This document shows positions 10,901-36,550 of a stretch of 64,000 nucleotides of DNA, piece after piece. Source of the stretch: an uncultured delta proteobacterium (GTDB lineage: Bacteria > Myxococcota > Myxococcia > Myxococcales > Myxococcaceae); assembly GCA_963776345.1 (NCBI GenBank), contig CAVZMH010000003.1:96001-160000 (forward strand), in the 5' to 3' direction. Position 1 is the stretch's first letter. Every line of letters begins with the position of its first letter. The notes under the pieces are model-generated. The model saw nothing but the letters and a program-made list of their open reading frames with translations. It was not told the DNA's origin and searched no databases. The translations under genes were made by a program, and so were the position numbers.

Positions 10901-11228
10901 GGAGCGCCAGGCGCTGGAATCGGTGATGACCGAGCCGTTCCGGGCGGCCCTGGCCCGGTTGGTCCCCGAGGTGCTGCGCCGGTCCGAGGGCGACCCGGTC
11001 CGGGAATACCTGGAGGGGGCAGAGCTGACCGGGGTCCGCTGTGCGCTGTTCACCGCGGGCGACCTCGAGGCGGTGAAGAAGCTCGTCCAGGGTGAAACCG
11101 GCTCCAGCTATCGCGTCGCGGGCAAGGTGAAGATCCGCGAGCTGATGACCTTCGCGGTCTCCGAGGACCTCGCCGCGCTCCGGATGGCGGTGGGAACCAA
11201 CGTCGAGGTCCCCACCCGGAAGTCCTGA
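1941..11228 (+). CDS. agmK: Giant TPR-repeat protein, adventurous gliding motility AgmK/GltI-like (3095 aa)
   Basis: Continuous TPR-like repeats; AGGGAGG RBS 8 nt before the TTG start; immediately upstream of an agmX/gltJ-like gene, as in Myxococcus. Confidence 0.75.
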   Translation: MGTGADSVKAYSAVLHKKPNDAEALAALEALLKDETVRAEAARALIPAYEAVKEHRKLVAALDLVAEMTQDQLERVLALQQAAHVHLHHLRQPELAFAALSRALRLSPADPNLRTAARRAAEDADAMDGFANVLKELVGRPDVEPPARVALHRELADVQEKKLDDRRGAIGQLEAVLALEPGNGDALRALQRLLRATDDWHRLVPVLDTLAGVVPDPAERLALLREMALLLEGKLEDREAAAAAWRRVSEADPLNREAVSALDRLYTALGKFENLAFALELRRAQEGQSPQGREATFRLAQLRRDKLQDFGGALQLLGQVLSEDPGHTATVDLLEAWARSHDPDSRSALETLDPVLTRSGQHARRVAIREARMADALTDEKIRLSQEIRSIQERDMGQPQRAFVAAGQAFAANVDRAGSRADLERLARVTGSYEELADVYEQVAAGNRGADPDKIACLRRAAELREHLAQSDEAIKDWQALLADAPQDRQALDALGKLFEHTKNAKQLSDVTLRKAQLAADPHERRTLLLKAGEALEAAADDARAIDAYKEALALRRGADGLEALDRLYARGRRFEEQADVLSQLAASTTGEVQKAHLLRRAQLLEREKELPAAVEGYARLLAVAPTEPNAVAGLERLMELPDVRPDAARLLEPVYRSLNDVRHLVEVLEIRLAGASPQDRLPLLEEIANLRETLGEKDLAFAARARSFSEVPESPEAREQLERLAAETGAFEELAAAYQDQLERGVTNATSTELWRRLAVLWSERLDRMDLAVRAYEELARREPRNVAVLESLARIHTRAGEARELAAVMKRMVMAEPSPPKQIDLLFRLGTLAEETLSDKQLAAQCYGEILARKPDDEDAIKFLGKVLTESERWPELASLIVREIQLADSSGRHEEMYDLMVRLGRLRIARLRDPRGGLDIFEDVLRRKQGHAGAIGALEEMARSDSPLRGEAAEALEPIFTSGGDHLRLVQMLESRASTEPVAEERAALLRKVAKLYAGPMQNGDLAFVSASRALRELPDEEASLSLVVALAERASHGGEELASLLEEILPRASEDAARVAILRALGKAQEKLGHQAEAIDAWRRVLEVAPSDGEAMGFLVRLYQAAGRAPELLEIYKRQLSISEEPAVRAALLFQIAGLQDSAVHDTVGAMATLRRLLELKPDDAQALEKLDALCEKQERWPELADVIGRRLALPGGDLDLDLRLRLAVVRETRLHDKIGALELYGQILSAQPKHPGALAQLEAWAKREPQNKPLVEVLLGAYRVTGEQAKLAGLLELRVGASPDPFERRQLLIELAGLHEAGHDPAGVFGALARAFQEDPNDAALRARLGKAADAARAHEALAHLYEEELPRIAETKDAAAALLELGGLYEQHLSNPARAIEVLERARTLDAATSLPALTALSRLYGQAGRSDRLVESLDELEKLTPDGNERVQILFRLGQVAQDELEDEPRAADAFERLLAIDKTHLPAARLLESIYERSGTPDRLFNVLRIQRDLTSGPERERILAKMVKVSAEGLADLEASIELYSELFKKNPKSDQAFGALEQALEKAGRWEDLRALLAGKIPQTADPRELVRLNEKLGVVLYRQLGRAEEAIAPLRTALERDARNRNALETLRDIDEQLGRREELVAVLRRLIPLQEAPEGVKALRIRLAEVLGEMSRREEALDAARRSLEIEPHTVADLDRVGKLFLGLRAFGDAVRALELKAEVWQLLEEKDGVIAALFEIAEVWIGQAGKPEQAAPILERVLEFDPANRNAYERVLSLYSDAGDWRAYAQAVDRYLPNLVTDEDKIKALRELGRIREQKLGQKDGAFLALCRALQLDASDDSLREDVERLAQETGSFEELAAVYEQVADELPKGPLAERLYLVLARVQDRNLDDPGEAEAALRKILEFDPTNASALDAMAQMFGRRGRDRELIVSLEQKLEAAPSIEARKTILREVARIHLERLKDPEEAANALIRALELEADVETLAELARLYREQHMWGDLAATLARTRDLLPTAEERARMQVQVAEVQEREIGDEEAAVEAYREALALDPRNKEALEALERLYTRLDRPADLLAIYERQLELTEDYREKVKILFHSAAIWEDRYQNAANADACIDGVLALDPTSLQAIKALERLRRAQGRWEDLVGVLERHIQLATDTQEQADIMVEAGEVLRTHLHQTDKAADAFQAALQVFPGHTPALHALGTLYERSGNWPFALEMLHQEAQELGRDPRAVEVLHRMGKINEDMLQDVSSAKACYAEALRIDPDYLPSLQAVRGIYENEQDWDSYEQTLVAEARATDEASAKARAYLAIARYHSERREDPDSAMHWYEEAIKLDPELADAALPLSDIYLARERWEPAEQMLEVVIRSFKGRLATEQDDALSKDLCRQVYRMGYVQEKLGRRDRALAAYEEAYQLDATYLPALEGYGNLLVQSGRHDQALKVFQTILIHHREDLTDLEIVELYWQIGEVHIALKQHDRAQNHFEKALAIDPGHEPSLRALIQLADGAGRWDRSAEYRQALVGVLEGEPKAEAALELGQLARDRLRDPHTAIDAYAQALRIRPQSLEVMDALYVLYRETRQPGKAAEVLETMLGQPELQADAQRAKRVWFALGESLRDELRDTGRAVEAFNAALDLDPQFLEAFGAIEAMLGAAKEWKQLEENYARMIQRLPKTDETEPARMALWRALGDLYLQVLKQPESALMAYQVSAAGLPDDAPVQETYAELLLQSSGNEEKAVQALRLALAHTQNPKKVASQLAELAARRKDYDGAWLAAQVVAGLLGDPGPAEKEIISKLGPYAKKRETPRATLNDRSWAQHLLHPRVRTPFAELMGLLFQGAGQLSAVPLAQAQLVPKKHRIDVATAQEYQIHHYRAVARLLGLEAVELFSPFLVATRDKLAKRSMEPAPDPLLAVEIVHAHPVCLKVGGKFFGDPQAKDTHAQLGRTLALLRPELIFASRFSPERLAAVFQGAVLLAGFQMRWTAQAGAIEAERQALESVMTEPFRAALARLVPEVLRRSEGDPVREYLEGAELTGVRCALFTAGDLEAVKKLVQGETGSSYRVAGKVKIRELMTFAVSEDLAALRMAVGTNVEVPTRKS

Positions 11229-17664: not shown

Positions 17665-18366
17665 ATGCGAAATGCAGTCCTGATTGCAGCCGTCGCCCTC
17701 GCCACCGTCGCTCGCGCCGAGTACACCGAGGCGGCAGTCACCAACGGCGGAACGATCAGCGGTCGCGTCACCTACGACGGCACGCCACCGAAGCCCGAGA
17801 AGGTCACCGTCACCCAGGATCCCGGGACCTGCGGGACGTCGCGCGAGCTCGACGAGTGGCAGGTCTCCTCGTCAGGAGGGGTGAAGGACACGGTCGTCTA
17901 CCTGGTGGACATCAAGAGCGGGAAGAAGATGGACCTCCCGAGCAAGCCGACCCTCGACCAGAAGGGCTGCCGCTACGACCCGCACATGCAGATCATCGGT
18001 CAGAACGCGGACCTGCAGGTCAAGAACAGCGACCCGATCCTCCACAACATCCACTCGTACCAGGAGGGCCGGACCATCCTGAACCTCGCCGAGCCCAAGC
18101 AGGGGATGGTGGTGGAGAAGAAGATGAAGAAGTCTGGCGGTCAGTCGCTGAAGTGCGACGTCCACAACTTCATGCGCGGCGGGCTCTTCGTGGCGGAGAA
18201 TCCCTACGCGGTGGTCACTGACGCCGACGGCAAGTACGAGATCAAGGACGTCCCCCCCGGCACGTACCAGATCGCCGCCTTCCACGAGGTCGCCGGGACC
18301 AAGATGGGCACGGTCACCGTCCCCGCCGGGGGGAAGGCGTCCTACGACGCGAAGATCAAGAAGTGA
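17665..18366 (+). CDS. Secreted cupredoxin-like protein with a carboxypeptidase-regulatory-like domain
   Basis: Signal peptide; LDQKGCRYDP and NSDPILHNIH motifs; CDVHNFM with type-1 Cu-like C-x2-H-x2-M spacing; TDADGKYEIKDVPPGTY. Confidence 0.8.
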   Translation: MRNAVLIAAVALATVARAEYTEAAVTNGGTISGRVTYDGTPPKPEKVTVTQDPGTCGTSRELDEWQVSSSGGVKDTVVYLVDIKSGKKMDLPSKPTLDQKGCRYDPHMQIIGQNADLQVKNSDPILHNIHSYQEGRTILNLAEPKQGMVVEKKMKKSGGQSLKCDVHNFMRGGLFVAENPYAVVTDADGKYEIKDVPPGTYQIAAFHEVAGTKMGTVTVPAGGKASYDAKIKK

Positions 18367-18893
18367 CCCGCTTCGCCGCTCCCGGTCGCCTCGAGCGCTG
18401 GGTGGCGCGCCCGGTCTTCTGGTGGACGGCGATGGGGCTCCTGGTGGGGGGCCTCCTCGTCTCGGGGGTGTCCCGCCCCGTGCCCCCGCGGCTCCCGGTG
18501 CTGGATCGGGTCCCGCCCACCGGCCGGGGGCGGCTGGTCGTCTTCGGTGATCCGGCGTGCCCGGAGTGCGTCGCCGCCAGCTCCGGGGCGCTGCGCTCCC
18601 TCTCCCGTCACCTCCGGTCGGTCCGCCAGGGCTTCGATCTGGAGTGGATCAGCCTGGGCGACGCGGCGACGGCCCCCGCGCTCGGACCGCCGGTCCTCAC
18701 GGTGGACGATGGTTCGCGCGCTGCACCTCTGGTCGCGTTCCTGGCGCGGAGCCCGGAGCAGGCCGCGCTCCGCCGCGGCGAGCGCGGGGTGCTGGTCGAT
18801 CCGGCCGGCAAGGTCCGGGCGCTGCCCGTGCTCTCCGATCCGCCCGCGCGCGATCTGCTGCCGGCGATCACCCAGGTGATCAACGGTCGCTAG
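18363..18893 (+). CDS. Membrane-anchored thioredoxin-fold protein, degenerate SCO/SenC-like (CxxC)
   Basis: N-terminal TM, LPVLDRVP, CPEC, GVLVDPAGKVR; GTGA overlap with the previous gene. Confidence 0.55.
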   Translation: MTRFAAPGRLERWVARPVFWWTAMGLLVGGLLVSGVSRPVPPRLPVLDRVPPTGRGRLVVFGDPACPECVAASSGALRSLSRHLRSVRQGFDLEWISLGDAATAPALGPPVLTVDDGSRAAPLVAFLARSPEQAALRRGERGVLVDPAGKVRALPVLSDPPARDLLPAITQVINGR

Positions 18894-18916
18894 CGAACAG
18901 TCCGGGCTCCCGGGCG

Positions 18917-19061
18917 CTGCTCGACTGTTCGATGTTTGACTGAGCAATGAAGTGGTGTTTCCAGGCAGGGCTTCATTGCTTCTGCTTCAAACGACGCGGC
19001 GTGGCGTGAAAATCCTTTGTTTGGAATCTTCGCCCGGTTGTCCCTTTAGTTGCGCGCGCAA
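18917..19061. promoter_or_regulatory. Regulatory region upstream of the cyc2-like gene
   Basis: AT-rich intergenic region with TTGACTGAGCAA (18936-47), a 10-bp inverted repeat AGCAATGAAG/CTTCATTGCT (18943-52 and 18971-80), and the palindrome TTGCGCGCGCAA (19050-61). Confidence 0.45.
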
Positions 19062-19105
19062 TGGATGCCGCTCGATGTGGCGAGCGGCCGAGGGAGGAGG
19101 GTGGC

Positions 19106-20413
19106 ATGAAGCTGCGCGTCCTTGTCGTCGCCGCTGCCGCGCTGGCAGTGCTGCTACCGGGATCGGCCGGGGCGATCCCTGCCTTCGCCCGGAAGTACAA
19201 CGTGGCCTGCAGCACCTGCCACGAGGCCTGGCCGAAGCTGAACGACTTCGGGCAGCTGTTCCGTGACAACGGCTACCGGATGAACCGGGGCAAGGACAAC
19301 CCCACCGAGCAGAACGGGTCGTACTGGCCGATCGCCATGCGCACCACCGTGGGCTACCAGTTCGCGCAGCAGGAGGGGGTGGCGGTGGCTGAGCCGCCGG
19401 GGACCACCACCACCAAGACCGGGACTCTCGGCTTCGCCGGCCTGGACATCCTCACCGCCGGTGCGCTCGGCGAGCAGATGAGCTGGCTGCTGGTCTACAC
19501 CCCTGGGCTGGGGAGCGCGGGATTCGGAACCGGGCCCGCAGACGGAGATCTGGAATCGGCCTTCGTCGGCTTCCACCGCCTCTTCGGAACACCGTTCCTC
19601 AACCTCCGGGTGGGGAAGCACGCGCCGGATCTGCCGGTGGACGAGCACCGGATCCTGACCCTCACCCAGGGGTACAACATCTTCCACTTCCATCCGCAGG
19701 GAAGCGCCGCGACCTTCGAGCCAGGGAGCAACCAGGCGGGCGTGGAGATCTACGGACACACCGAGCTGGACGAGCTCCGCTACTCCGTCACGGTGGCCAC
19801 CGAGAACGACGCCATCTTCTCCAAGAACTGGGTCAGCTCGCCGGTGGTCTGGGCCAGGGTCTCGGGGAAGGTGATGCTCAACAACGGGATCCTGCCGGAG
19901 ATCAAGGGCGGAATCTTCGGCTCCGCCGGCTGGCACCCGGTCCAGGCGCTGACCGATCCTGCCTCGGGGGACCCGGTGAGCGGCACGGCCTACTCCAACC
20001 AGCCCTACCAGAAGTTCGGGGCCGATCTGCACCTGCTCTTCTTCAGCACCGTGAACCCCCTGGACATCACCGGGGTGGTGATGTTCGGGAACGAGGACCA
20101 GGCGCTGATCGCCAATGGCACCCGGTCCGCGCAGTGGCTCGGCGGGTTCGTCGAGGTGAACTGGGTCCCCACCTTCAACTGGGCGATCGTCGGCCGGTAC
20201 GAGCAGATCGCCACCACCCAGGCCGGGGACCCCACGGCGGCGCAGGATGAGGGGGATCTCACCGCGTTCACCCTCGCGATTCGCTACACGATGGAGTTCT
20301 CGAACCGGGCGGCGGTCACCCTGGTGCTCGAGGGTAGCCAGGTCTCCACCACTTCGTCGGGCATGCAGCCGAAGGGCAGCACTGTGCTCGCCGGCATCGA
20401 CTTCGCGTTCTAA
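19106..20413 (+). CDS. cyc2: Cyc2-like fusion of a monoheme cytochrome c and an outer-membrane porin
   Basis: Signal peptide, then AIPAFARKY-NVA-CSTCH-EAW-PKLNDFG (AxPxFAR[QK][TY], CxxCH, PxL), then ~380 aa of amphipathic beta strands ending GIDFAF; GGAGG RBS. Confidence 0.8.
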   Translation: MKLRVLVVAAAALAVLLPGSAGAIPAFARKYNVACSTCHEAWPKLNDFGQLFRDNGYRMNRGKDNPTEQNGSYWPIAMRTTVGYQFAQQEGVAVAEPPGTTTTKTGTLGFAGLDILTAGALGEQMSWLLVYTPGLGSAGFGTGPADGDLESAFVGFHRLFGTPFLNLRVGKHAPDLPVDEHRILTLTQGYNIFHFHPQGSAATFEPGSNQAGVEIYGHTELDELRYSVTVATENDAIFSKNWVSSPVVWARVSGKVMLNNGILPEIKGGIFGSAGWHPVQALTDPASGDPVSGTAYSNQPYQKFGADLHLLFFSTVNPLDITGVVMFGNEDQALIANGTRSAQWLGGFVEVNWVPTFNWAIVGRYEQIATTQAGDPTAAQDEGDLTAFTLAIRYTMEFSNRAAVTLVLEGSQVSTTSSGMQPKGSTVLAGIDFAF

Positions 20414-20430
20414 CCGGAGGAACCACGCGC

Positions 20431-21186
20431 ATGGCCTCGCTCCGACCCGTCCTCGTCGCCACCCTCGGCATCGCCGCGGTGGCGCTTCTCTCCGGTGCCG
20501 ACCAGGGCGGTGACGCCGCCCCGGTACCCATCGATCAGGGCCTCGTCGCCCGCGGCAAGCCGCTCTACGAGCGCTTCTGCATCAGCTGTCACGGACCGCA
20601 GGGCGACGGCCAGGGATACGCCGCCCAGTGGCTGGATCCGCTGCCCCGGGATTTCACCTCGGGCATCTTCAAGTGCCGCTCGACGCCGAGCGGGACGCTG
20701 CCCACCGACGCGGACCTGATGCGCACGCTGCGCGTCGGCGTCTACCACACGTACATGCCGCCCTGGGCCGCGCTGGGGGACTGGAACCTCCGCGCGCTGG
20801 CCGAATACATCAAGACCTTCTCGCCGAAGTGGAAGGAGGAGGCGCCCGGGCAGCCGATCACCATCCCGCCTGCGCCTCCGGACGACGAGGCCTCCCGGAA
20901 GCGCGGCGCGGTGATCTGGGCCAACAACCAGTGCGCCAAGTGCCACGGGGCCAAGGGCAAGGGCGACGGGCTCTCGGTGCCCACCCTGATGGACGACTGG
21001 GGTCACCACATCACCCCGTTCGACTTCACCAGCAGCGACGCCCGGAAGTGCGGGAACACCGACACCGATCTCTACCGGACCTTCATGACCGGGGTGAGCG
21101 GCACGCCGATGCCCTCCTTCGCCGACAGCCTGAAGCCGGAGGAGGCCTGGGACCTGGTGCACTTCCTCCACACGCTCCGTCAGTAG
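20431..21186 (+). CDS. Periplasmic diheme cytochrome c
   Basis: Signal peptide; CISCH..MPPW and CAKCH..MPSF. Confidence 0.9.
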   Translation: MASLRPVLVATLGIAAVALLSGADQGGDAAPVPIDQGLVARGKPLYERFCISCHGPQGDGQGYAAQWLDPLPRDFTSGIFKCRSTPSGTLPTDADLMRTLRVGVYHTYMPPWAALGDWNLRALAEYIKTFSPKWKEEAPGQPITIPPAPPDDEASRKRGAVIWANNQCAKCHGAKGKGDGLSVPTLMDDWGHHITPFDFTSSDARKCGNTDTDLYRTFMTGVSGTPMPSFADSLKPEEAWDLVHFLHTLRQ

Positions 21187-21202
21187 GACCGATCGCCCAC
21201 CG

Positions 21203-21844
21203 ATGACCACCGCCGCCACCCACGTTCACCACGAGGTCACCGCCAGCTGGCCACCCGACGCCCAGTTCGGGAAGGCCAACCCCGCCAAGCTGGCGATGTG
21301 GATCTTCCTCCTCTCAGACTGGCTGTCGTTCGCCGGGCTCCTCCTGGCCTATGGCATCCTCCGAGCCGGGAACGCGGTGTGGCGCCACCCGGGAGAGCCG
21401 GCGCTCAACATCCCCTTCACCTGCCTCCTGACGCTGGTGCTCATCGCCTCGAGCATCAGCGTCATCGTGGCCCACGACGCGGCGCTCGGGGGCGACCGCC
21501 GTCGCACCGCGCGCTGGCTGGGCATCACCGCCCTCGGGGGGGTGCTGTTCCTCACCGGCCAGTACGCGGAGTGGATCGGCATCCTCCACCCCGGGCTGAT
21601 GCACGAGGGTCTGGTGTTCGGGCGCTCGGCCTACGCCAGCACCTTCTACGTGATCACCGGCTTCCACGGCCTGCACGTCACGGCCGGCGTCATCTACCTG
21701 CTCGCGGTGCTCGGGCGCACCGCCCGGGGCGTGGCCCGGGCCCAGGAGGTGGAGCTGGTGGCGCTCTTCTGGCACTTCGTCGACCTGGTCTGGAACCTGG
21801 TGTTCGTCCTGGTCTACCTGGTGCCTACCGGAGGTGCGGGATGA
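21203..21844 (+). CDS. Heme-copper oxidase subunit III (short form)
   Basis: MWIFLLSD, TGFHGLHV and FWHFVDLVW motifs. Confidence 0.9.
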   Translation: MTTAATHVHHEVTASWPPDAQFGKANPAKLAMWIFLLSDWLSFAGLLLAYGILRAGNAVWRHPGEPALNIPFTCLLTLVLIASSISVIVAHDAALGGDRRRTARWLGITALGGVLFLTGQYAEWIGILHPGLMHEGLVFGRSAYASTFYVITGFHGLHVTAGVIYLLAVLGRTARGVARAQEVELVALFWHFVDLVWNLVFVLVYLVPTGGAG

Positions 21845-22137
21845 GCACCTCGGCGGCGGCCCAGAACCGCACCCGTGACTACTTGGTGATGCTGGCGGTG
21901 ATGGTCGCCCTCACCGTGCTCGAGGTGGGGGTGGCCCTCGTCCCCGGGCACGCGGGCTGGACGGTGGTGCTCCTCCTCGCGCTGGCCCTGGCCCAGGCGG
22001 TGTACTTCGCGCTCTACACCATGCACCTCTCGCGAGAGACGGTCGCGCTGCGACGGATGGCGGCCGGGCCGGGCGTCATCGCCGCGTTCTACGCGCTGGT
22101 GCTGGTCGCCGAGGCAGCCTGGAGGCACTTCACGTGA
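21841..22137 (+). CDS. Cytochrome c oxidase subunit IV-like protein
   Basis: LTVLEV..AQAVYFALYTMHL; 3 TM helices; ATGA overlap. Confidence 0.8.
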   Translation: MSTSAAAQNRTRDYLVMLAVMVALTVLEVGVALVPGHAGWTVVLLLALALAQAVYFALYTMHLSRETVALRRMAAGPGVIAAFYALVLVAEAAWRHFT

Positions 22138-22298
22138 CGCTGTTCCAGCTGGTGCTGCTCGCCTGTCCCGCCTGTGCCGCGAACTCCGCCTCTCCGGGGG
22201 TGGCGGTGCTCCTCCCGGCGCTGATCGGGACGCCCTTCCTGGTGGCCGGGGCGGTCATCCTCGGCATCCGCAAGGTCTCCCGAGGAGGGGAGTCATGA
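22134..22298 (+). CDS. 54-aa membrane peptide with an ACPAC motif
   Basis: Not in the ORF track. MTLFQLVLLACPACAANSASPGVAVLLPALIGTPFLVAGAVILGIRKVSRGGES; GTGA and ATGA overlaps on both sides; GGAGG RBS. Confidence 0.7.
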   Translation: MTLFQLVLLACPACAANSASPGVAVLLPALIGTPFLVAGAVILGIRKVSRGGES

Positions 22299-23080
22299 AG
22301 CTCGCGCTGCTCGCCGCCGGTCCGCTGGGAATCGGGCTCCCCTTCGATGCCTCGAAGGATGGCTGGCGGATCGACGAGATGATCAACACCACCACCACCT
22401 TCGTGGGGGTGATCTTCCTGATCATGGTGGCCTGGATGGCCTGGTCCATCTTTCGCCACGGCCCGAAGCACACCGCGGTGTTCGACCACGGAGACAAGCG
22501 CAGCTCCTGGATGTGGACCGTGGCCACCGCCGGGCTGATCTTCGTGGTGGTGGACGGTGACCTCCTGGTCCGAACCCTGATCGCCGTCAACCGGATCTAC
22601 TGGAACTTCGAGGAGGCCGAGAAGCGGCCGGACGCGGTGCGGATCGAGATCAACGCCCACCAGTGGGCCTGGTCGGTGCGCTACGCCGGTCCGGACGGCA
22701 AGTTCAACACCGCCGACGACGTGATCACCCTGAACGAGGTGGTGCTCCCCAAGGACGCCCCGGCCCTCTTCCAGGTGGCCTCCACCGACGTGCTCCACAG
22801 CTTCAACGTCCCCAACATGCGGATGAAGGTCGACGCGGTGCCGGGGACCATCAATCGCATGTGGTTCACTCCGGCCCAGCTCGGCGACTACGAGATCGGC
22901 TGCGCCCAGCACTGCGGCGCCAACCACTACAAGATGCAGGGCATGGTGCACGTGGTGGAGCCCGCCCGGTTCCAGCAGTGGCTGGCCGCCGCCTCCGCCA
23001 ACGCGCGCCAGGGATACGACCCCCAGGACACCGAAGCCCACTGGGGCTGGGACTGGGCCGAGCACACGAGGGTTCGATGA
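22295..23080 (+). CDS. coxB: Cytochrome c oxidase subunit II (CuA)
   Basis: Two TM helices; QWAW; DVLHSF; CAQHCGANHYKM CuA motif. Confidence 0.93.
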   Translation: MKLALLAAGPLGIGLPFDASKDGWRIDEMINTTTTFVGVIFLIMVAWMAWSIFRHGPKHTAVFDHGDKRSSWMWTVATAGLIFVVVDGDLLVRTLIAVNRIYWNFEEAEKRPDAVRIEINAHQWAWSVRYAGPDGKFNTADDVITLNEVVLPKDAPALFQVASTDVLHSFNVPNMRMKVDAVPGTINRMWFTPAQLGDYEIGCAQHCGANHYKMQGMVHVVEPARFQQWLAAASANARQGYDPQDTEAHWGWDWAEHTRVR

Positions 23081-24882
23081 TCGCCGAGGAACACCTGGAC
23101 CGAGAGACGCTGGAGCTGGCCGAGGCGCTCCAGCCGATCCATCACCCGCCGGAGACCTTCTTCCGCAAGTACCTCTGGTCGCTCGACCACAAGGTCATCG
23201 CCAAGCAGTACCTGTGGGCCGGCCTGATCTTCCTCCTGGTGGGCGGCACGCTGGCCATGCTCATCCGCTGGCAGTGGGCCTTCCCCGGCCAGCCGGTGCC
23301 CGTCCTGGGGAAGATCTTCCTCAGCGACTCCGGAGGGGTGATCGGCCCCGCCCAGTACATGCAGGTGTTCACCATGCATGGACTGATCATGATCTTCTTC
23401 GCCATCACCCCGATCCTGATCGGCGCGTTCGGGAACTACTGCATCCCCTTGCTGATCGGCGCACGGGACATGGCGTTCCCCTGGCTGAACGCGCTCTCGT
23501 TCTGGGTGTTCGCCCTCTCGCTCTGCCTGGTGGTGGGCGCGTTCTTCGGCGACCTCGGCGCGGCCGGGGCAGGGTGGACCACGTACCCGCCGCTCTCCAC
23601 CAACGTCGGCACGCCCGGCAGCGGCCAGACGCTGATGATCTTGGCGATCTTCGTCACCGGCGTCTCGTCGATCATGGGCGGCATCAACTACGTCACCACC
23701 GTCATCCGTCTGCGGGCGCCGGGGATGACCTGGCTCCGGATGCCGCTCACCGTCTGGGGGCTGTTCCTCACCGCGGTGCTCAACGTGCTCTTCATTCCGG
23801 TGCTGGGCTCGGCGGCGCTGCTGCTCCTCCTCGACCGGGTGTTCGGCACCCAGTTCTACCTGGCGGGGGTGGCCACCCAGGGCGGTGGAGACCCGATCCT
23901 CTTCCAGCACCTGTTCTGGATCTTCGGCCACCCCGAGGTCTACATCCTCATCCTCCCGGCCTGGGGCATCGTGGGCGACCTGCTGGCCTTCTTCAGCCGC
24001 AAGCCGGCCAACTGGTACCTGGGCACGGTGCTGGCGATGACCGCGGTGACCGTGCTCAGCGCGGTGGTCTACGGCCACCACATGTTCATGACCGGGCTCA
24101 ATCCGTTGCTCGGGCAAGGGTTCATGGTGTTGACCCTGATCATCAGCGTCCCGGCCGAGCTGCTGTTCCTCAACTGGCTGCGCACCATCTGGAAGGGCTC
24201 CATCCGGCTCACCACGCCGATGCTCTTCTCCCTGGGGATGGTATTCGTCTTCGGGTTCGGGGGCCTCACCGGCCTGTACCTCGGCGCGGTGGCGCCGGAC
24301 TTCTACCTCCACGACACCATGTTCGTGGTGGGCCACTTCCACTTCACCATGGCCGCCGCCTCGTTCCTGGCCAGCTTCGCCGCGCTCTACTTCTGGTTCC
24401 CCAAGATGTTCGGTCGGTCGATGAGCGAGCCCCTGGGGAAGGCGCACTTCTGGATCACCGTGGTGGGTATCACCCTGGTCTTCGGCGGGCAGCTGCTCGC
24501 CGGGTACTCGGGACAGCACCGGCGGCTGTACGACCCGTTCGTCTACCAGTACCTCCAGCCGCTCCGGGCGCTGAACCGCTACACCAGCTACGCGGCCTTC
24601 GTGCTCTTCCTCGGCCAGCTGGCCTTCATCTGGAACTTCTTCCACTCCATGGTGCGTGGACCGAAGGCCGAGGCCAACCCCTGGCAGGTGGGGACGCTGG
24701 AGTGGTCCATTCCCTCCCCGCCGCCGATCCACAACTTCGACCACCTCCCCATCGTTCGTCGCGGTCCGCACGAGCTCTCCAGCCCCGAGGTCCGGGCCCG
24801 GCTGGGACGGGACTGGATCGGCCAGGCGGAGGTGCTGCCCGACGCGCGCGATGTTCCGACGACGGCGCCGGCGCGCGGGTGA
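23077..24882 (+). CDS. coxA: Cytochrome c oxidase subunit I (A-family heme-copper oxidase)
   Basis: DHKVI, TMHG, RDMAFP, GWTTYPPL, GHPEVY, GHHMF and HDTMFVVGHFH motifs; probable start MIAEEH. Confidence 0.95.
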   Translation: MIAEEHLDRETLELAEALQPIHHPPETFFRKYLWSLDHKVIAKQYLWAGLIFLLVGGTLAMLIRWQWAFPGQPVPVLGKIFLSDSGGVIGPAQYMQVFTMHGLIMIFFAITPILIGAFGNYCIPLLIGARDMAFPWLNALSFWVFALSLCLVVGAFFGDLGAAGAGWTTYPPLSTNVGTPGSGQTLMILAIFVTGVSSIMGGINYVTTVIRLRAPGMTWLRMPLTVWGLFLTAVLNVLFIPVLGSAALLLLLDRVFGTQFYLAGVATQGGGDPILFQHLFWIFGHPEVYILILPAWGIVGDLLAFFSRKPANWYLGTVLAMTAVTVLSAVVYGHHMFMTGLNPLLGQGFMVLTLIISVPAELLFLNWLRTIWKGSIRLTTPMLFSLGMVFVFGFGGLTGLYLGAVAPDFYLHDTMFVVGHFHFTMAAASFLASFAALYFWFPKMFGRSMSEPLGKAHFWITVVGITLVFGGQLLAGYSGQHRRLYDPFVYQYLQPLRALNRYTSYAAFVLFLGQLAFIWNFFHSMVRGPKAEANPWQVGTLEWSIPSPPPIHNFDHLPIVRRGPHELSSPEVRARLGRDWIGQAEVLPDARDVPTTAPARG

Positions 24883-24889
24883 GCCTCCG

Positions 24890-25489
24890 ATGACCGGCGT
24901 TCTCCTGTACCGGCCGCTGCATGCCCGCGAAGAGGCCACGGCGCGGGTGGGGATGCTCCTCTTCCTCGGCAGCTGGGCGATGATGTTCGCCGGGCTGTTC
25001 TTCGCCCTGGGGGTGGTGCGCTGGCGAAGCCCGATGTGGCCCCCCGAGGAGGTGGGCCCGCTCCCGGTGGGCTGGGCCGCCCTGAACACGGCGCTCCTTA
25101 TCGGGTCGAGCCTAGCGCTGGAAGTCGCGCTGCGCGCCGTGCGGCGGGCGAAGCTCGCGTCGATGCGCACCGCGCTGAGCGTGGCGCTGGCGGTGGGGCT
25201 GGCCTTCCTGGGGAGCCAGGTCCTCCTCTTCGCCAGGATGGTGAACCTGGGCGTCCGCTGGGACGCCGGGGCGTTCGGCGGCGCGGTGTTCGGGCTGTGC
25301 GGCTTCCACGCGCTCCACGCCGCGGTGGGCCTCGCGGGGCTCGCCGCGGTGCTGGCCGCCGCGATGCGCGGCGTGCTCCAGCCGGCCCGTCACCTGCGTC
25401 TGCAGCTCTGGACCCACTACTGGCACTTCGTCGGGGTGGTGTGGCTCATTCTCTTCCCGGCGGTGTTCGCCGGCACCGGCGGAGGCTGA
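24890..25489 (+). CDS. Second heme-copper oxidase subunit III-like protein
   Basis: GMLLFLGSWAMMF, NTALLIGSS, GFHALH and YWHFVGVVW motifs. Confidence 0.85.
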   Translation: MTGVLLYRPLHAREEATARVGMLLFLGSWAMMFAGLFFALGVVRWRSPMWPPEEVGPLPVGWAALNTALLIGSSLALEVALRAVRRAKLASMRTALSVALAVGLAFLGSQVLLFARMVNLGVRWDAGAFGGAVFGLCGFHALHAAVGLAGLAAVLAAAMRGVLQPARHLRLQLWTHYWHFVGVVWLILFPAVFAGTGGG

Positions 25490-25492
25490 TCG

Positions 25493-26428
25493 ATGCGACG
25501 ACTGATCGCCTGGGTCCCGGTGCTCCTGCTCGCGGCGTGCGCGAAGGACACCCGACCGTTCAAGGCTCCCATGAAGCTCGCGGGGAAGATGGTGCCCGCC
25601 GAGACGCTGAACCTCGGCCGGACCAGCTACCTCCAGTACTGCCGCGCCTGTCACGGGAACGAGGGCAAGGGCGACGGCCCCTCGGCGCCGGGGCTCCGGC
25701 CCCCGCCGCGCAACTTCACGCAAGGGGAGTTCAAGTTCGGAGGGGTGCTCGACCAGAAGCTCCCCCGCGACGAGGACCTGGTCCGCATCGTCCGGAGCAA
25801 CCTGCATGGCACGGCGATGCTCGGCTGGGAGGTGCCTGAGCGGGAGCTGACCGCCATCATCCAGTACCTCAAGACGCTCTCCGACGCCTGGAAGGACGAC
25901 GACGCAGTGGGCGAGCCGGTGGTGGTGGCCCCCGATCCCTTCGGCCCCGGAAAGGAGGCCGAGGCGATCGCACGCGGCAAGCTGCTCTACCACGGCTTCA
26001 CCCAGTGCCTGAACTGCCACCCCGCCTACGCGACGCCCCAGGAGATCAGCGACGCGTCCCAGCAGCTGAACGGCCACCCGACCACGGATTTTCGCGCCGA
26101 CATGTACTTGCCGGAGATGAAGCCCAGCGACTACACGGCCTCGGACGGCAAGGCGGTGCAGCTCCTGCCGCCCGACTTCCTCCTCAACCCGGTCCGCTCC
26201 ATCCAGCCCGGCACGGAGCTGACCGACCTGTACCGGATTCTGGTCTCCGGCGTGACCGGCGCGGCGATGCCGGCCTGGGATCCTCAGGTATTGCCCGACA
26301 AGACCCGGGACGTGTGGGCGCTCGCGTACTACGTCCGCTCGCTCATCCAGATGCGCGGCACGGAGCAGGCCCTGGCGTTCAAGTCGCGTCTGGCGAGCTC
26401 CGCACCCCACCCCAAGGGTCCGCAGTGA
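25493..26428 (+). CDS. Diheme cytochrome c lipoprotein
   Basis: Lipobox LLAAC; CRACH and CLNCH; MPAW. Confidence 0.88.
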   Translation: MRRLIAWVPVLLLAACAKDTRPFKAPMKLAGKMVPAETLNLGRTSYLQYCRACHGNEGKGDGPSAPGLRPPPRNFTQGEFKFGGVLDQKLPRDEDLVRIVRSNLHGTAMLGWEVPERELTAIIQYLKTLSDAWKDDDAVGEPVVVAPDPFGPGKEAEAIARGKLLYHGFTQCLNCHPAYATPQEISDASQQLNGHPTTDFRADMYLPEMKPSDYTASDGKAVQLLPPDFLLNPVRSIQPGTELTDLYRILVSGVTGAAMPAWDPQVLPDKTRDVWALAYYVRSLIQMRGTEQALAFKSRLASSAPHPKGPQ

Positions 26429-26652
26429 GCGGGGAGGCGACCGTGCTCCGGCTCTCGAGCGTCCACCGGGTGGTCATCACCTCGGCGCTCCTGGTGTGCA
26501 TCGGGGTGACGATCTTCGGGCTGACCAGGCCCGAGGGACCCGCGCGGGGCGACTGGGAGGCCCTGGGGATCACCGGGCTGTCGGTCGCGGTGCTGCTCGG
26601 CGCCTACCTGTCCTGGTTCGTCGCCCGTCACCCCAGACCTGAGCGGCGCTGA
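26425..26652 (+). CDS. Small 2-TM membrane protein at the end of the oxidase operon
   Basis: GTGA overlap; two hydrophobic helices. Confidence 0.55.
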   Translation: MSGEATVLRLSSVHRVVITSALLVCIGVTIFGLTRPEGPARGDWEALGITGLSVAVLLGAYLSWFVARHPRPERR

Positions 26653-27136
26653 GCGGCGCGACGCCGCGGACCTTGCCGTGGTCGCCGTTCTGCGGCCCCT
26701 GGACGAGCCGTGGCTCGCCGAGCCGCCGCAGGAGGCCCCGGAGCTCGTGCTGCTCGGTGGGATCGAGGACTCCGAGGACCCTCTCGCCGGCGCGGAGCAC
26801 CAGTGGCTCGAGCTTCCGGTGCCAGCGCCGGCCGGCGGGAGTCAGGGTGACCAGTCGCCTTCGCTGGTCCAGGGGGTCGAGCGCCCGGGCGGTGAGCCCC
26901 CGGCGGTCCATCTCGTCGAGCAAACGGGAGATCCCTGCCGGGTGCTGGCCGGTGATCTCCGAGAGGTCCTTCTGGGTCGCTGCCCGCCGCTCCACGAGAC
27001 GGGCGGCGACGATCCAGGCCCCCATGTCCTCACCGCGGTTTCCCAGCTCGTGGCCGGCCGCGAGGTAGAGGGCCCGACGGGCCTTGGTGATCAGGCGGGT
27101 CAGCTCGGGCAACAGAGTTGTGCCTGCGCTCTGCAT
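26570..27136 (-). CDS. MarR family transcriptional regulator (3' end uncertain)
   Basis: TQKDLSE..ISRLLDEMDRRGL..DPLDQRRRLVTLTPAG; overlaps the convergent gene by ~80 nt. Confidence 0.88.
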   Translation of the reverse strand: MQSAGTTLLPELTRLITKARRALYLAAGHELGNRGEDMGAWIVAARLVERRAATQKDLSEITGQHPAGISRLLDEMDRRGLTARALDPLDQRRRLVTLTPAGRRWHRKLEPLVLRAGERVLGVLDPTEQHELRGLLRRLGEPRLVQGPQNGDHGKVRGVAPLSAAQVWGDGRRTRTGRRRAAPRPTAR

Positions 27137-27188
27137 GGCGGTCCTCACGCTGGAGATCTTCCCAAGAGGACACCCGGGGGACAATTCG

Positions 27189-27204
27189 TTGCGTGAACAC
27201 GCAA
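27189..27204. promoter_or_regulatory. Palindrome TTGCGTG-AA-CACGCAA upstream of marR (candidate autoregulatory site)
   Basis: Perfect 7-bp inverted repeat in an AT-rich intergenic region. Confidence 0.5.
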
Positions 27205-27241
27205 TCGATTCGATCGACTGCCTCCACTCCTCGCCATCCGT

Positions 27242-27868
27242 TCAGTGGTCGAAGAAGACCTCGGGCCCGCGGGCAACCCGGCGGACGAGCAGGCGCACCG
27301 CCCAGACGCCCAGCCAGCCCCCGATGACCAGCCCGAGCGTGGGGTCCACCCAGTGCCATCCGAACAGCGAGATGCACCCGGCGCCGACGAGGCCGGCCAA
27401 GGTCATCCCGCCGTCGGAGATCTCGTGGGCCAGGGCCGCCCGGAAGGAGAAGTGGGTGGTCGCGGGCTTGCGGAACAGCAGCGCCGAGCAGGTGTTCGCC
27501 CCGAGCCCCAGCAGCGAGACCAGCATCGCCGCGGGGTTGGGCGGCTCCTCCGGGGGGTGCAGCAGGTGGTCGGCGCTGATCCATGCCACCCATCCGGCGA
27601 TGGCCACGACCATCAGCAGCACGATGACCGCGCCCAGGTCCTCGCTCGCCCCGTGCAGGCGCCCCGGGGGAATCAGCAGGACCAGGAAGATGCCCAGGTG
27701 GGCCAGGAGGTGAACGGCGTCGGCGAGGAGGAACAGGCTCCCGCTCGCACCCGAGGAGGCGAGCTCCACGCCGCCCGCGAGCACGGTGATGACCGCCGCC
27801 AGCGCCACCCGCGAGGGGGGCACGTGCGAGAGGTGGTGGTGGTGCTCGTGGGGAGGGTGCGAACCCAA
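27242..27868 (-). CDS. Cation diffusion facilitator (CzcD/ZitB-like), TM domain only
   Basis: His-rich N-terminus; SLFLLADAVHLL; RAALAHEISD; WVDP. Confidence 0.8.
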   Translation of the reverse strand: MGSHPPHEHHHHLSHVPPSRVALAAVITVLAGGVELASSGASGSLFLLADAVHLLAHLGIFLVLLIPPGRLHGASEDLGAVIVLLMVVAIAGWVAWISADHLLHPPEEPPNPAAMLVSLLGLGANTCSALLFRKPATTHFSFRAALAHEISDGGMTLAGLVGAGCISLFGWHWVDPTLGLVIGGWLGVWAVRLLVRRVARGPEVFFDH

Positions 27869-34354: not shown

Positions 34355-36550
34355 TCAGAAGTAGAGCGCCACCGTGGCCCGGAGGTTGATCGGGTTGCCG
34401 GGCGTGAAGTGGATGTCGGTCACTCCCTTGCCCGCGAGGCCCGGATCGTCCCGTCCGGCGACGTACGAGTCGTTCGCGAACTGCGCCTCGCGCCAGCTCG
34501 TGTTCAGCACGTTCTCCAGCACCATTCCGACCTCGAGGAAGCGCCACCGGTAGGCCGCGGTGAGGTCGACGACGAAGTAGCCTTGGGCCTGGAGGCCGTT
34601 CGGGTCCTGGGTCGCGGGGCGGCTCCCGACCCAGCGCGCTCCGAGGCGACCGCGCCAGCCCGCGGGATGGAGGACGCTGAGCCCCGCCTGCCCGGTGAGG
34701 CTCGGCGCCAACGCCACCGCGCTGCCGTTGCCCTGGTCCTTCGTGTACGCCGCATGCGCGAGGGTCAAGTCGAAGTCGGCCCACATCCACGGGAGGATCC
34801 GGAAGCGCGCCTCGAGGTCGACACCGTACCGGTCGGTCGGGTCGGACGCCTCCACCGTGCCGTCGTCGGCCACGAAGACGAACTCGGACTGGAGATGGAT
34901 GACCCAGAGCGCCGCGGCGAGGTCCAGGCGGCGATCGAGCAGTGACAGTCGGGTCCCGATCTCGCCGCCCCAGGCCCGGGGCAGCGCGCCCACGCCGTCC
35001 TGCGCGACGACGGCCCGCGCGTCGTTGCTGTGAAAGCCTCCGCCGGCGTCCAGGTACAGGTCCCAGCCGGTCACCGGGGTGATGACGGTCTGGAGCTTCG
35101 GGTTGACGATCCCCCGCTGCACCACCGAGGTTCCCTGGTTGGGCAGCGCGCTCGGGTTCGGGCTGGTGTTGGTGACGTTCCACTCGAAGAGGTCCCCCCG
35201 CACCCCGAGCACGACGCGCAGCCACCGGGTGAAGCGCACGTCCTCCTGCAGGAAGGCGGCGAGATCGGACTGCACCACGTCGTCGAGGGCGCAGGGATTG
35301 AGCGCGGGCTCGCCCACCGGGGCGCAGTTCGAGAGCCGCACCCGCTGCTTGACGTGCCAGAGGCCGACGCTCGTCGAGTCGAGCCGAGCCTGGGCGCCCA
35401 GGGTGGTCACGGTCCGGATGTCGCCGAGGTCGACCCGCCGCCGGTACGTGGCGTTCAGGCCCGCGTAGACCCGCGCATCGTCCTGCTCGATCTCGTCGAA
35501 GTTCGCCTGGTCACGGAGCTGGAAGGTGAAGTCGTTGAAGAGCGTGAGACGGTAGCGGACCAGGTATGCGGTGATGGCGATCTCGTCGGTGTCGGACGGG
35601 CGGCTCTCGACGGTGAGCGCGAGCATCTGGCGCTGCGTCTGGCCGCCCTCGGTCGGGTCGATCGCCCCGAACCGGTCCAGGTGCCGCGGGTCCGACTCGG
35701 GCAGGTCCACGAACCGGGCCGGGATCTGCCCGCTCGAGCGCCACTGTGAGCCGTAGGCGCTGGCGAGGATGCCGAGCCGCGTCGACGAGGAGATCTGGAG
35801 CGTTGACTTGAGGAGGAGGTTGTAGCGGCGCAGGTCCTCGCCGACCAAGAACGGGCCCTGCGTGCCGTAGACCTCCGCTGCCATCCAGGTCGGGTTGGTG
35901 GCGCTCCCGGTCGTACCGATGCCCAGCACGCGCCAGGTCTCGAACGAGCCGTAGGTCGCCTGCACCGAGCTCTCGGCGAAGCTCCGCCGGGTCCGGAGGT
36001 TCACCGCTCCGGCGGTGGCGAAGTCGCCAACCTCGACGAAGTAGGGGCCCTTCAGGACGTCGACCCGGTCGATGACCTCCGGGATGAGGAAGTGCAGGTC
36101 GGCGTAGCCCTGGCCGTGGGCGTGGGAGGGTAGGTTGACCGGGATGCCGTCGACGGACAGGGCGACGTCCGTCCCGTGGTCGGCGTCGAACCCGCGGAGG
36201 AAGAGCTGGTCCGCCTTTCCACCCCCCTGGTGCTGGGCGATGACTAGGCCCGGGACGACCCGGAGGATGTCCTCCGGGGTCGCGTAGGGGCGGAGGCGGA
36301 GGTCCCGGTCCCGGATGCTCTCCGCCGACGCCGCCGAGGTCGGCGCGGGAGCCTCGATGGTCGTCTCGTACGTGCCCGGCCGCGCCGGGGCGTCGGTGGC
36401 AGCCGGCGTTCCACGAGAGGGTGCCTGCGGGGCGGCTGACTGCAGGGCGGGCTCGGGCAGGTCTGGCGAACGGGTGGCAGGCTGGGCGCGCGCCGCTGCG
36501 CCCAGGAGCAGGAGGGTGAGCCCACAGCTCACCCGGACGGATCGGGGCAT
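34355..36550 (-). CDS. TonB-dependent receptor (probably for a metal)
   Basis: QHQGGGKADQLFLRGFDADHGTD, NLPSHAHGQGYADL, KGPY plug motifs; C-terminal F. Confidence 0.93.
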   Translation of the reverse strand: MPRSVRVSCGLTLLLLGAAARAQPATRSPDLPEPALQSAAPQAPSRGTPAATDAPARPGTYETTIEAPAPTSAASAESIRDRDLRLRPYATPEDILRVVPGLVIAQHQGGGKADQLFLRGFDADHGTDVALSVDGIPVNLPSHAHGQGYADLHFLIPEVIDRVDVLKGPYFVEVGDFATAGAVNLRTRRSFAESSVQATYGSFETWRVLGIGTTGSATNPTWMAAEVYGTQGPFLVGEDLRRYNLLLKSTLQISSSTRLGILASAYGSQWRSSGQIPARFVDLPESDPRHLDRFGAIDPTEGGQTQRQMLALTVESRPSDTDEIAITAYLVRYRLTLFNDFTFQLRDQANFDEIEQDDARVYAGLNATYRRRVDLGDIRTVTTLGAQARLDSTSVGLWHVKQRVRLSNCAPVGEPALNPCALDDVVQSDLAAFLQEDVRFTRWLRVVLGVRGDLFEWNVTNTSPNPSALPNQGTSVVQRGIVNPKLQTVITPVTGWDLYLDAGGGFHSNDARAVVAQDGVGALPRAWGGEIGTRLSLLDRRLDLAAALWVIHLQSEFVFVADDGTVEASDPTDRYGVDLEARFRILPWMWADFDLTLAHAAYTKDQGNGSAVALAPSLTGQAGLSVLHPAGWRGRLGARWVGSRPATQDPNGLQAQGYFVVDLTAAYRWRFLEVGMVLENVLNTSWREAQFANDSYVAGRDDPGLAGKGVTDIHFTPGNPINLRATVALYF

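Follow-up and report, generated by a model that had tools for sequence, protein, structure and literature searches.

A candidate outer-membrane-to-O2 electron-uptake operon in a myxobacterial genome, with a Cyc2-like cytochrome-porin and an aa3-type oxidase

The DNA analysed here is a stretch of 64,000 nucleotides (positions 96,001 to 160,000 of contig CAVZMH010000003.1, hereafter the window) from the metagenome-assembled genome (MAG) GCA_963776345.1 of an uncultured member of the Myxococcaceae. It contains a row of co-directional open reading frames (ORFs) in which a gene for a Cyc2-like fused cytochrome-porin is accompanied by genes for a cupredoxin, two dihaem cytochromes c and a haem-copper oxidase, and which we read as a candidate chain for moving electrons from outside the cell to O2. 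The host genome amounts to 5.1 Mb in 24 contigs, is 98% complete and has a GC content of about 70%; its nearest named protein relatives come from 'Myxococcaceae bacterium' MAGs, at 85% and 75% identity. The features of the row, with protein lengths in amino acids (aa), are as follows.

17665-26652, + strand: the gene row, eleven co-directional ORFs
17665-18366, + strand: predicted secreted amicyanin-like type-1-copper (cupredoxin) protein, 233 aa, called from a profile, an AlphaFold2 model and Foldseek
18363-18893, + strand: predicted membrane-anchored CPEC (CxxC) protein, 176 aa; overlaps the cupredoxin gene by 4 bp
19106-20413, + strand: Cyc2-family fused monohaem cytochrome-porin, 435 aa, called from the motif, one CXXCH, a C-terminal Phe and a porin model
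20431-21186, + strand: predicted soluble periplasmic dihaem cytochrome c (CcoP-like), 251 aa; two Cytochrom_C stretches, with CISCH and CAKCH
21203-21844, + strand: oxidase subunit III, first copy, 213 aa; PF00510 at 67.5 bits, NF050119 at 120 bits, below cut-off
21841-22137, + strand: oxidase subunit IV, 98 aa; PF03626 (COX4_pro) at 39.5 bits; its ATG overlaps the coxIII stop by 4 bp
22295-23080, + strand: oxidase subunit II, 261 aa; PF00116 at 63.6 bits, TIGR02866 at 142.7 against a cut-off of 147.7
23077-24882, + strand: oxidase subunit I, A-type, 601 aa; PF00115 at 437 bits, TIGR02891 at 575 against a cut-off of 670
24890-25489, + strand: oxidase subunit III, second copy, 199 aa; PF00510 at 63 bits
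25493-26428, + strand: dihaem cytochrome c, predicted lipoprotein, 311 aa; lipobox-like LLAAC, CRACH and CLNCH, Cytochrome_CBB3 match
26443-26652, + strand: small hydrophobic ORF, 69 aa; an open frame only, with a GTG start 14 bp after the gene for the dihaem c lipoprotein

Spacing between neighbouring genes ranges from -4 to 17 bp, apart from two wider gaps, one of 212 bp ahead of the Cyc2-like gene and one of 157 bp ahead of coxII. An earlier note on this DNA, made from its letters without database searches, had described the Cyc2-like gene as followed by tightly packed or overlapping genes for a soluble dihaem c, oxidase subunits III, IV, II, I and a second III, and a dihaem c lipoprotein; all of these are present, and the 157-bp gap is the only wide one among them. 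The unit most likely starts at 17665, which adds the genes for the cupredoxin and the CxxC membrane protein to that earlier list. GGAGG-like sites lie ahead of most genes of the row. No terminator-like site was found on the + strand within 17665-26652, and a promoter scan, which is uninformative at 70% GC, also returned none. On the 5' side of 17665 there is a spacer of 420 bp and then a gene on the opposite strand.

The N-terminus of the Cyc2-like protein reads MKLRVLVVAAAALAVLLPGSAGA up to the predicted cut, followed by IPAFARKY-NVA-CSTCH-EAW-PKL, and its C-terminus reads ...GIDFAF. The signal peptide, recognized by inspection only, is made up of MKLR, a hydrophobic stretch and a predicted cleavage point between AGA and IP, and this position matches the sequenced cleavage of Cyt572 reported between A and YPGF. 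AIPAFARKY occupies residues 23-31, the single CXXCH of the protein is the CSTCH at residue 35, and PKL occupies residues 43-45. In an alignment of 14 family members reaching down to 36% identity, A21, A23, P25, A26, F27, A28, R29 and K30 are invariant, as are C35, C38, H39, W42, P43, L45 and N46, which marks the motif as held by selection and no chance match. Exactly one CXXCH was also found in 84 of the 85 Cyc2-like homologues that we extracted. The account of Cyc2 given by Keffer et al. 2021 lists a signal peptide, one CXXCH, the motif AXPXFAR[Q/K][T/Y] upstream of it (described as unique to Cyc2), PXL downstream, a minimum length of 365 aa and a porin with OprO and OprP as structural analogues. 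On every one of these points that can be tested, the 435-aa protein agrees, with its predicted signal peptide, CXXCH, flanking motifs, length and predicted 16-strand porin.

An AlphaFold2 model of the protein, built on the alignment of 14 members (mean predicted local distance difference test score, pLDDT, 73.4; predicted template modelling score, pTM, 0.75) places 16 strands over residues 76-434. Its Foldseek matches are the 16-strand porins PorB, BpsOmp38, OprP (2o4v) and OprO (4rjw), with E-values from 3e-12 to 1e-10. The signal peptide, the series AIPAFARKY-x3-CSTCH-x3-PKL and a barrel ending in Phe, which the earlier note had reported, can thus all be traced in the sequence, and the proposed barrel fold is returned both by the 16-strand model and by its resemblance to porins of the OprP/OprO type. 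Family databases barely recognize the protein: Pfam yielded BBP2 alone as a weak match (E 0.004), NCBIfam yielded no family, no Cyc2 model was matched in either, and a sequence search of the PDB gave nothing at E up to 1. A protein atlas placed it only among clusters of 'hypothetical protein', one of which carries Porin_O_P on 20% of its members; among the 120 listed of 373 homologues none is informatively named, all being 'hypothetical protein' or nameless. The family is nevertheless large, since a profile search of 1.84 billion cluster representatives returned 4302 at E<=0.001, 1723 at E<=1e-10 and 147 at E<=1e-30.

Within the family, two indirect signs point to the side of Cyt572 (Cluster 3) for this protein, namely a match to the N-terminus of Cyt572 and the origin of its homologues from the same phyla as a published cluster. 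Its predicted mature N-terminus, IPAFARKYNV, shares 7 of 10 residues with YPGFARKYNF, the Edman-sequenced N-terminus reported for Cyt572 of Leptospirillum. A published sequence similarity network places Cyt572 in a dense cluster with homologues from Acidobacteria and Nitrospira, and both these groups hold full-length homologues of the window protein. A quick maximum-likelihood tree of 85 homologues, rooted at the midpoint, puts the window protein in a Myxococcota clade of 13 rows with a support of 100. In this tree members of the family mostly fall together by phylum (8 label changes where 6 would be the minimum, with kin sharing labels), and on that basis recent horizontal acquisition was set aside. 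A second Cyc2-family gene occurs in the same genome, on contig 20 around 125519-125656 (L002:265-1827, - strand), as a 520-aa ORF with AGA before the cleavage point, followed by IPAFARKYQTSCLTCH...PKLN; its barrel part is longer, it sits on a very long branch of the tree, and there are no oxidase genes in the 3 kb examined around it.

The oxidase encoded in the row is a complete A-family haem-copper oxidase of the aa3 type, as read from its subunit set and predicted ligands. Subunit I has the ligand motifs H101-G, GHPEVY at 284, HHM at 334 and HFH at 420, and we take the Glu of GHPEVY to be the proton-pathway glutamate of A1-type oxidases. Subunit II carries the CuA pattern CAQHCGANHYKM, with Gln at a position usually taken by Glu, and the entry motif QWAW. 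It contains no CXXCH and no fused cytochrome c domain, and would thus need an external cytochrome or cupredoxin as donor. The equivalog cut-offs of NCBIfam are missed (575 against 670 bits for CtaD), which marks the oxidase as a divergent lineage. The second coxIII is kept after coxI in Myxococcota loci. In all, the genome has three COX1 genes, the coxI of the operon included.

To place these genes in a wider context we searched the window proteins with tblastn against 93 loci (numbered L), comprising 13 from the genomes of relatives and 80 named genome records with 10-kb flanks. The counts of gene order refer to those of the 80 named loci that have enough flank, with taxon labels taken from record titles and with kin that are not independent of each other. 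They are distributed over the phyla as follows.

Dihaem c directly downstream of the Cyc2-like gene: Myxococcota 6/6, Acidobacteriota 40/41, Gammaproteobacteria 3/3, Limnocylindria 1/1, Eisenbacteria 2/2, Nitrospirota 0/17
A-type cox2 and cox1 within 9 kb on the same strand: Myxococcota 5/6, Acidobacteriota 31/37, Gammaproteobacteria 0/3, Limnocylindria 1/1, Eisenbacteria 2/2, Nitrospirota 0/15
Cupredoxin adjacent: Myxococcota 1/4, Acidobacteriota 38/39, Gammaproteobacteria 2/2, Limnocylindria 1/1, Eisenbacteria 2/2, Nitrospirota 5/13

Outside the Nitrospirota, a dihaem-c orthologue directly follows the Cyc2-like gene in 52 of 53 loci, and 45 of the 49 loci with at least 6.5 kb downstream have a terminal haem-copper oxidase on the same strand no more than 9 kb away. 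Of these 45, 39 were found by script, one (L073) has a sub-threshold cox2 and a cox1 of 318 bits, and five have an oxidase of the cbb3 type. The four loci without a terminal oxidase downstream are L015, L036, L059 and L043, the last of which has A-type oxidase genes to either side, but on the opposite strand. Of the 48 non-Nitrospirota loci with both flanks, 44 have an adjacent cupredoxin homologue; in three more Myxococcota loci it is convergent and placed after the operon, and in all six same-genus loci it is upstream, as in the window. Chance adjacency of the Cyc2-like gene and the oxidase was rejected on these counts. The five loci with cbb3 instead of aa3 after the core of cupredoxin, Cyc2 and dihaem c are gammaproteobacterial (L027, L041 and L058) or acidobacterial and Thermoanaerobaculia-like (L026 and L044), and in each of them CcoN and a CcoO/P fusion come straight after the dihaem c. 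In L027 (9146-19017) they are succeeded by a DsbD_2 protein and a P-type ATPase, a series that identifies a cbb3 oxidase cluster. Homologues in the Nitrospirota (23 loci, L020-L083) give full-length matches at 33-37% identity, and the five adjacent cupredoxins among them are directly upstream. Three MAGs titled Limnocylindria (Chloroflexota) or Eisenbacteria (L030, L057 and L070) have Cyc2-like genes that nest in the acidobacterial clade and show the acidobacterial gene order, which could be due to horizontal transfer or mis-binning.

Among the closest relatives the operon behaves as one accessory unit, with the Cyc2-like gene and the oxidase present or missing together. A full-length orthologue of the Cyc2-like protein (78-87% identity) occurs in 5 of 12 relatives from the genus. 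In four of these five carriers a coxI orthologue (90-94%) is found on the contig of the Cyc2-like gene, as far from it as in the window, the contig of the fifth being 3 kb long. The seven relatives without the Cyc2-like orthologue (completeness 66-100%, one of them at 100%) have no coxI more than 42% identical to that of the window. In 12 other genera of the family this query found no Cyc2-like match, and two of these genera, represented by G015 (C234:627-2360) and G018 (C7:59086-60798), carry a coxI that is 71-72% identical to that of the window.

The product of 17665-18366 has a signal-peptide-like N-terminus, and Pfam detects in it CarboxypepD_reg only, at the C-terminus. A profile of 20 homologues matches amicyanin over the whole length of the latter (E 3e-6), and H127, C164, H167 and M170 align with PHNVH...C..H..M of amicyanin, the segment HN-x-H corresponding to PHNVH and C-x2-H-x2-M to the ligand loop. 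C56, C102, H127, H130, N140, P144, C164, H167 and M170 are invariant in the 20-sequence alignment. In homologues extracted from 65 loci a C, a D, H-N-x-H, an N, a P and C-x2-H-x2-M are conserved at 91-98%, with a figure of at least 95% for the nine residues that are invariant in the smaller alignment. The AlphaFold2 model (pLDDT 91.6, pTM 0.87) has amicyanin as its top Foldseek match, with a target TM score of 0.71-0.72 and a root-mean-square deviation of 2.6-3.8 A over about 90 residues; further matches are a Nitrosopumilus cupredoxin, the cupredoxin domain of NirK, pseudoazurin and plastocyanin. By modelled fold and by its His/Cys/His/Met ligand set, the protein would be a type-1 copper protein with a predicted copper site. 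With amicyanin of Paracoccus and type-1 cupredoxins in general it has the fold and the H...C-x2-H-x2-M ligand spacing in common. It differs from amicyanin in an identity of only 16-20%, in having two more invariant Cys and another invariant His, and in flanking beta-sandwich parts related to CarboxypepD_reg/NOMO repeats.

The cupredoxin domain of this protein appears to be inserted inside a CarboxypepD_reg/prealbumin-like domain, as the N-terminal GGTISGRVTYDG and the C-terminal TDADGKYEIKDVPPGTYQI resemble two halves of one such domain, of which the C-terminal half matches NOMO2 repeats. The CPEC protein encoded next to it has no Pfam or PDB match, and is 60-71% conserved in same-genus loci and weakly in L017 and L019. 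If we were to hazard a guess, it is possibly a helper in thiol-disulfide or copper handling.

Both dihaem cytochromes are clearly homologous to chain B of PDB 6H5L, which we take to be the dihaem electron-transfer partner of an octahaem enzyme; the match is at E 1.4e-50 for the soluble protein and at E 7e-27 for the lipoprotein. A preprint cites this entry as an HAO structure of Kuenenia stuttgartiensis. The proteins of the window differ from that chain in partner enzyme and organism, and the second of them is predicted to be lipid-anchored. The soluble dihaem c is 40-45% identical to the dihaem part of the CcoO/P fusion in L027. Orthologues of the lipoprotein occur at 63-70% and in the same place in L014 and L016-L019, and the protein is likely a membrane-anchored donor to CuA. 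Both proteins also match the NCBIfam model of cytochrome 579, weakly and below threshold (E 2.6e-10 and 7e-10).

At the 3' end of the row, the 69-aa ORF has no Pfam or NCBIfam match above cut-off (its best is PF03706, E 0.003, 17.5 against a cut-off of 33.4 bits), and tblastn found no match of at least 45 bits to it in any locus, most same-genus loci ending before it. Directly 3' of the operon (26570-27868, - strand) are genes for a MarR-family regulator and for a CDF cation-efflux protein, the first of which, as called, overlaps with the small ORF (26443-26652) at the end of the latter. A TonB-dependent receptor with Plug and barrel domains is encoded at 34355-36550 on the - strand, about 8 kb 3' of the operon. 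The start of the window is occupied by a single open frame of 3095 aa (1941-11228, + strand) with a third-position GC (GC3) of 0.96.

A 349-nt contig from a metatranscriptome library, 98% alike, spans the coxI/coxIII junction at 24790-25138, and its source may be DNA or a relative. The other listed pieces from the RNA library (run X24) are mostly short, lie on the conserved coxI core and likely belong to other organisms. These pieces count neither for nor against transcription of the operon. At least half of the sequence words sampled from the stretch were found in five sequencing runs, including three soil metagenomes, and smaller shares in runs from peat, wetland and sediment; no RNA run is among the listed holders of these words.

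A close known counterpart is the rus operon of Acidithiobacillus ferrooxidans, cyc2-cyc1-orf-coxBACD-rus. Both operons are co-directional and place a Cyc2-type cytochrome-porin ahead of an aa3 oxidase, with a dihaem c adjoining and a blue copper protein. In the window, however, the copper protein is amicyanin-like, with a C-x2-H-x2-M loop and a prealbumin-like part, and is placed upstream; the oxidase genes run in the order III-IV-II-I-III, and there is a second dihaem c in the form of a lipoprotein. The hosts differ as well, an acidophilic autotroph in the one case and in the other a soil MAG of the Myxococcota, where the search for RuBisCO found none. The earlier note had proposed this analogy, together with a chain from the outer membrane to O2, and had named gene linkage in relatives as a point on which the proposal could fail. 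The analogy gains support from the copper protein found just upstream of the genes that the note had covered, and linkage with a dihaem c and a terminal oxidase proves to be conserved both in relatives and across phyla.

A comparison with Leptospirillum, made through the published N-terminus, reveals in Cyt572 (Cluster 3, of the Cyt572/Cyt579 system) the same mature pattern x-P-x-F-A-R-K-Y-N, one CXXCH and a porin-like barrel. Cyt572 has 570 aa whereas the window protein has 435 aa, and the partner genes of Leptospirillum are reported as not clustered and its oxidase as cbb3, in contrast to the clustered aa3 genes here. With the neutrophilic Cyc2 of Cluster 1, represented by Cyc2PV-1 of Mariprofundus, the published descriptions allow us to recognize the same consensus motif, the fusion of cytochrome and porin, and OprO/OprP as analogues. 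The organisms of that cluster are described as dedicated lithoautotrophic iron oxidizers, whereas the host of the window appears heterotrophic and its gene is accessory in the genus.

With moderate confidence, we propose from the gene content and the models that the operon encodes an accessory chain leading through the outer membrane to O2, with dissolved Fe(II) as the most probable extracellular reductant at its start. At the outer membrane, Fe(II) would reduce the single haem of the porin-cytochrome, from which the soluble dihaem c, the cupredoxin or both could shuttle electrons through the periplasm. The dihaem c lipoprotein would then pass them to the CuA of subunit II, and subunit I, at its haem a3-CuB site, would reduce O2 and conserve energy. 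Fe(II) is favoured as the donor because all three family members that have been tested biochemically, Cyc2 of A. ferrooxidans, Cyt572 and Cyc2PV-1, are reported to oxidize it.

Several observations weigh against this proposal. The loci compared for gene order were retrieved with peptide patterns taken from the Cyc2 motif, which makes conservation of the motif among them circular. Neutrophilic iron oxidizers typically use high-affinity cbb3 oxidases, and the oxidase of the window is of the aa3 type. In the model of the Cyc2-like protein the cytochrome domain (residues 11-74) has a pLDDT below 50, too low to tell where the haem lies with respect to the barrel. The coxI relatives of G015 and G018, which lack a Cyc2-like match, imply that the oxidase lineage also exists without Cyc2, and in the Nitrospirota no haem-copper oxidase was detected within 9 kb (0/15). 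A RuBisCO large subunit was not found in the 98% complete genome, which argues that the host is no classical lithoautotroph. Finally, the function of Cluster 3 homologues is called 'most uncertain' by Keffer et al. 2021. Given two more oxidases, the failure to find RuBisCO and seven relatives in the genus that do without the operon, the proposed chain would supplement a heterotrophic lifestyle, serving mixotrophy or the scavenging of Fe(II) and O2, and would not sustain autotrophy through the Calvin cycle.

The same wiring might also be fed from a different source of electrons, for instance humic substances or dissolved organic matter in reduced form, Mn(II), or else reduced sulfur or mineral surfaces, and while we regard this as rather unlikely, the caveat of the earlier note that the donor may differ from Fe(II) stands. 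Cyc2 homologues are reported from many organisms not known to oxidize iron, the uncertainty expressed for Cluster 3 applies here too, and a lake survey that lists Cyc2 in Myxococcota proposes electron uptake mediated by dissolved organic matter through Cyc2-type proteins; the presence of three soil metagenomes among the five runs with at least half of the sampled words, with smaller shares in peat and wetland, is in keeping with such a donor. Set against this are the three tested members named above, which are the only ones and all oxidize Fe(II), and the prediction of Keffer et al. 2021 that monohaem Cyc2 is specific for dissolved Fe2+, while multihaem oxidases may act on solid Fe(II).

The operon could also be mainly protective: by oxidizing Fe(II) at the cell surface and using up O2, it would keep down Fenton chemistry and oxidative stress in a myxobacterium that is microaerophilic or facultatively anaerobic. 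The accessory nature of the operon (5 of 12 relatives in the genus), its oxidase being one of three, the RuBisCO search that found none, and the genes for CDF cation efflux and a MarR regulator directly downstream on the other strand would all agree with such a role. However, a complete A-type oxidase with the Glu of GHPEVY, presumably the proton-pathway residue, would conserve energy regardless, and the retention of the chain as a whole across phyla is no less in line with a bioenergetic role, which leaves protection as the main purpose improbable in our estimation. We give very little credence to the view that no electrons pass between the Cyc2-like protein and the oxidase, the former being just an ordinary porin or a haem-binding protein of the outer membrane, or else that it carries electrons outward. 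The poor recognition of the protein by Pfam and NCBIfam beyond the weak BBP2 match, the oxidase lineage of G015 and G018 that occurs without it, and Nitrospirota homologues with no haem-copper oxidase nearby could be cited in its favour. It is countered by the order of cyc2 and dihaem c, kept in 52 of 53 non-Nitrospirota loci, by the A- or C-type oxidase in 45 of 49, and by the joint presence or absence of the Cyc2-like gene and coxI within the genus. Moreover, the occurrence of two unrelated oxidase types beside the same core argues for function and against an inherited accident, and outward transfer would make little sense for genes embedded in an O2-reductase operon.

Beyond the electron-uptake chain proposed for the window, we tentatively entertain a broader idea, which we consider plausible though somewhat doubtful, that a portable cassette for electron uptake, made up of the Cyc2-like porin-cytochrome, the amicyanin-like cupredoxin and the CcoP-like dihaem c, has been plugged into different partners in the course of evolution. 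These partners would be aa3 oxidases in Myxococcota, Acidobacteriota, Eisenbacteria and Limnocylindria, cbb3 oxidases in Gammaproteobacteria and Thermoanaerobaculia-like Acidobacteriota, and non-haem-copper partners in Nitrospirota.

Cyc2 and the rus operon are already well known. A published Cyc2 tree includes deltaproteobacterial sequences, equated there with the phylum Myxococcota, and metagenome surveys, the lake survey among them, list Cyc2 in Myxococcota. In the open-access literature that was searched, supplements and figures being outside its scope, no description of this operon architecture was found. What is new here is the gene order seen in the myxobacterium, III-IV-II-I-III with a lipoprotein dihaem c at its end and a cupredoxin upstream, and the finding that, across phyla, either an aa3 or a cbb3 oxidase may follow one and the same three-part core.

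The operon offers a defined set of partners, namely the cupredoxin and the soluble and lipoprotein dihaem cytochromes c, for the biochemistry of Cyc2 clades without a characterized member. The oxidation of iron in soil and peat is commonly attributed to a small number of specialist lithoautotrophs, and here a complete and conserved candidate chain is found in Myxococcota, with near-identical layouts in Acidobacteriota and other soil phyla. If the proposed chain operates as suggested, some of the most abundant soil heterotrophs would take electrons from Fe(II) or other extracellular reductants, with consequences for how iron, carbon and oxygen are budgeted at oxic-anoxic interfaces and for the reach of cyc2 as a marker gene. 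If the idea of a portable cassette also holds, abundant soil bacteria classed as 'heterotrophic', relatives of the predatory myxobacteria among them, would commonly possess a facultative ability to oxidize Fe(II) or other extracellular reductants aerobically.

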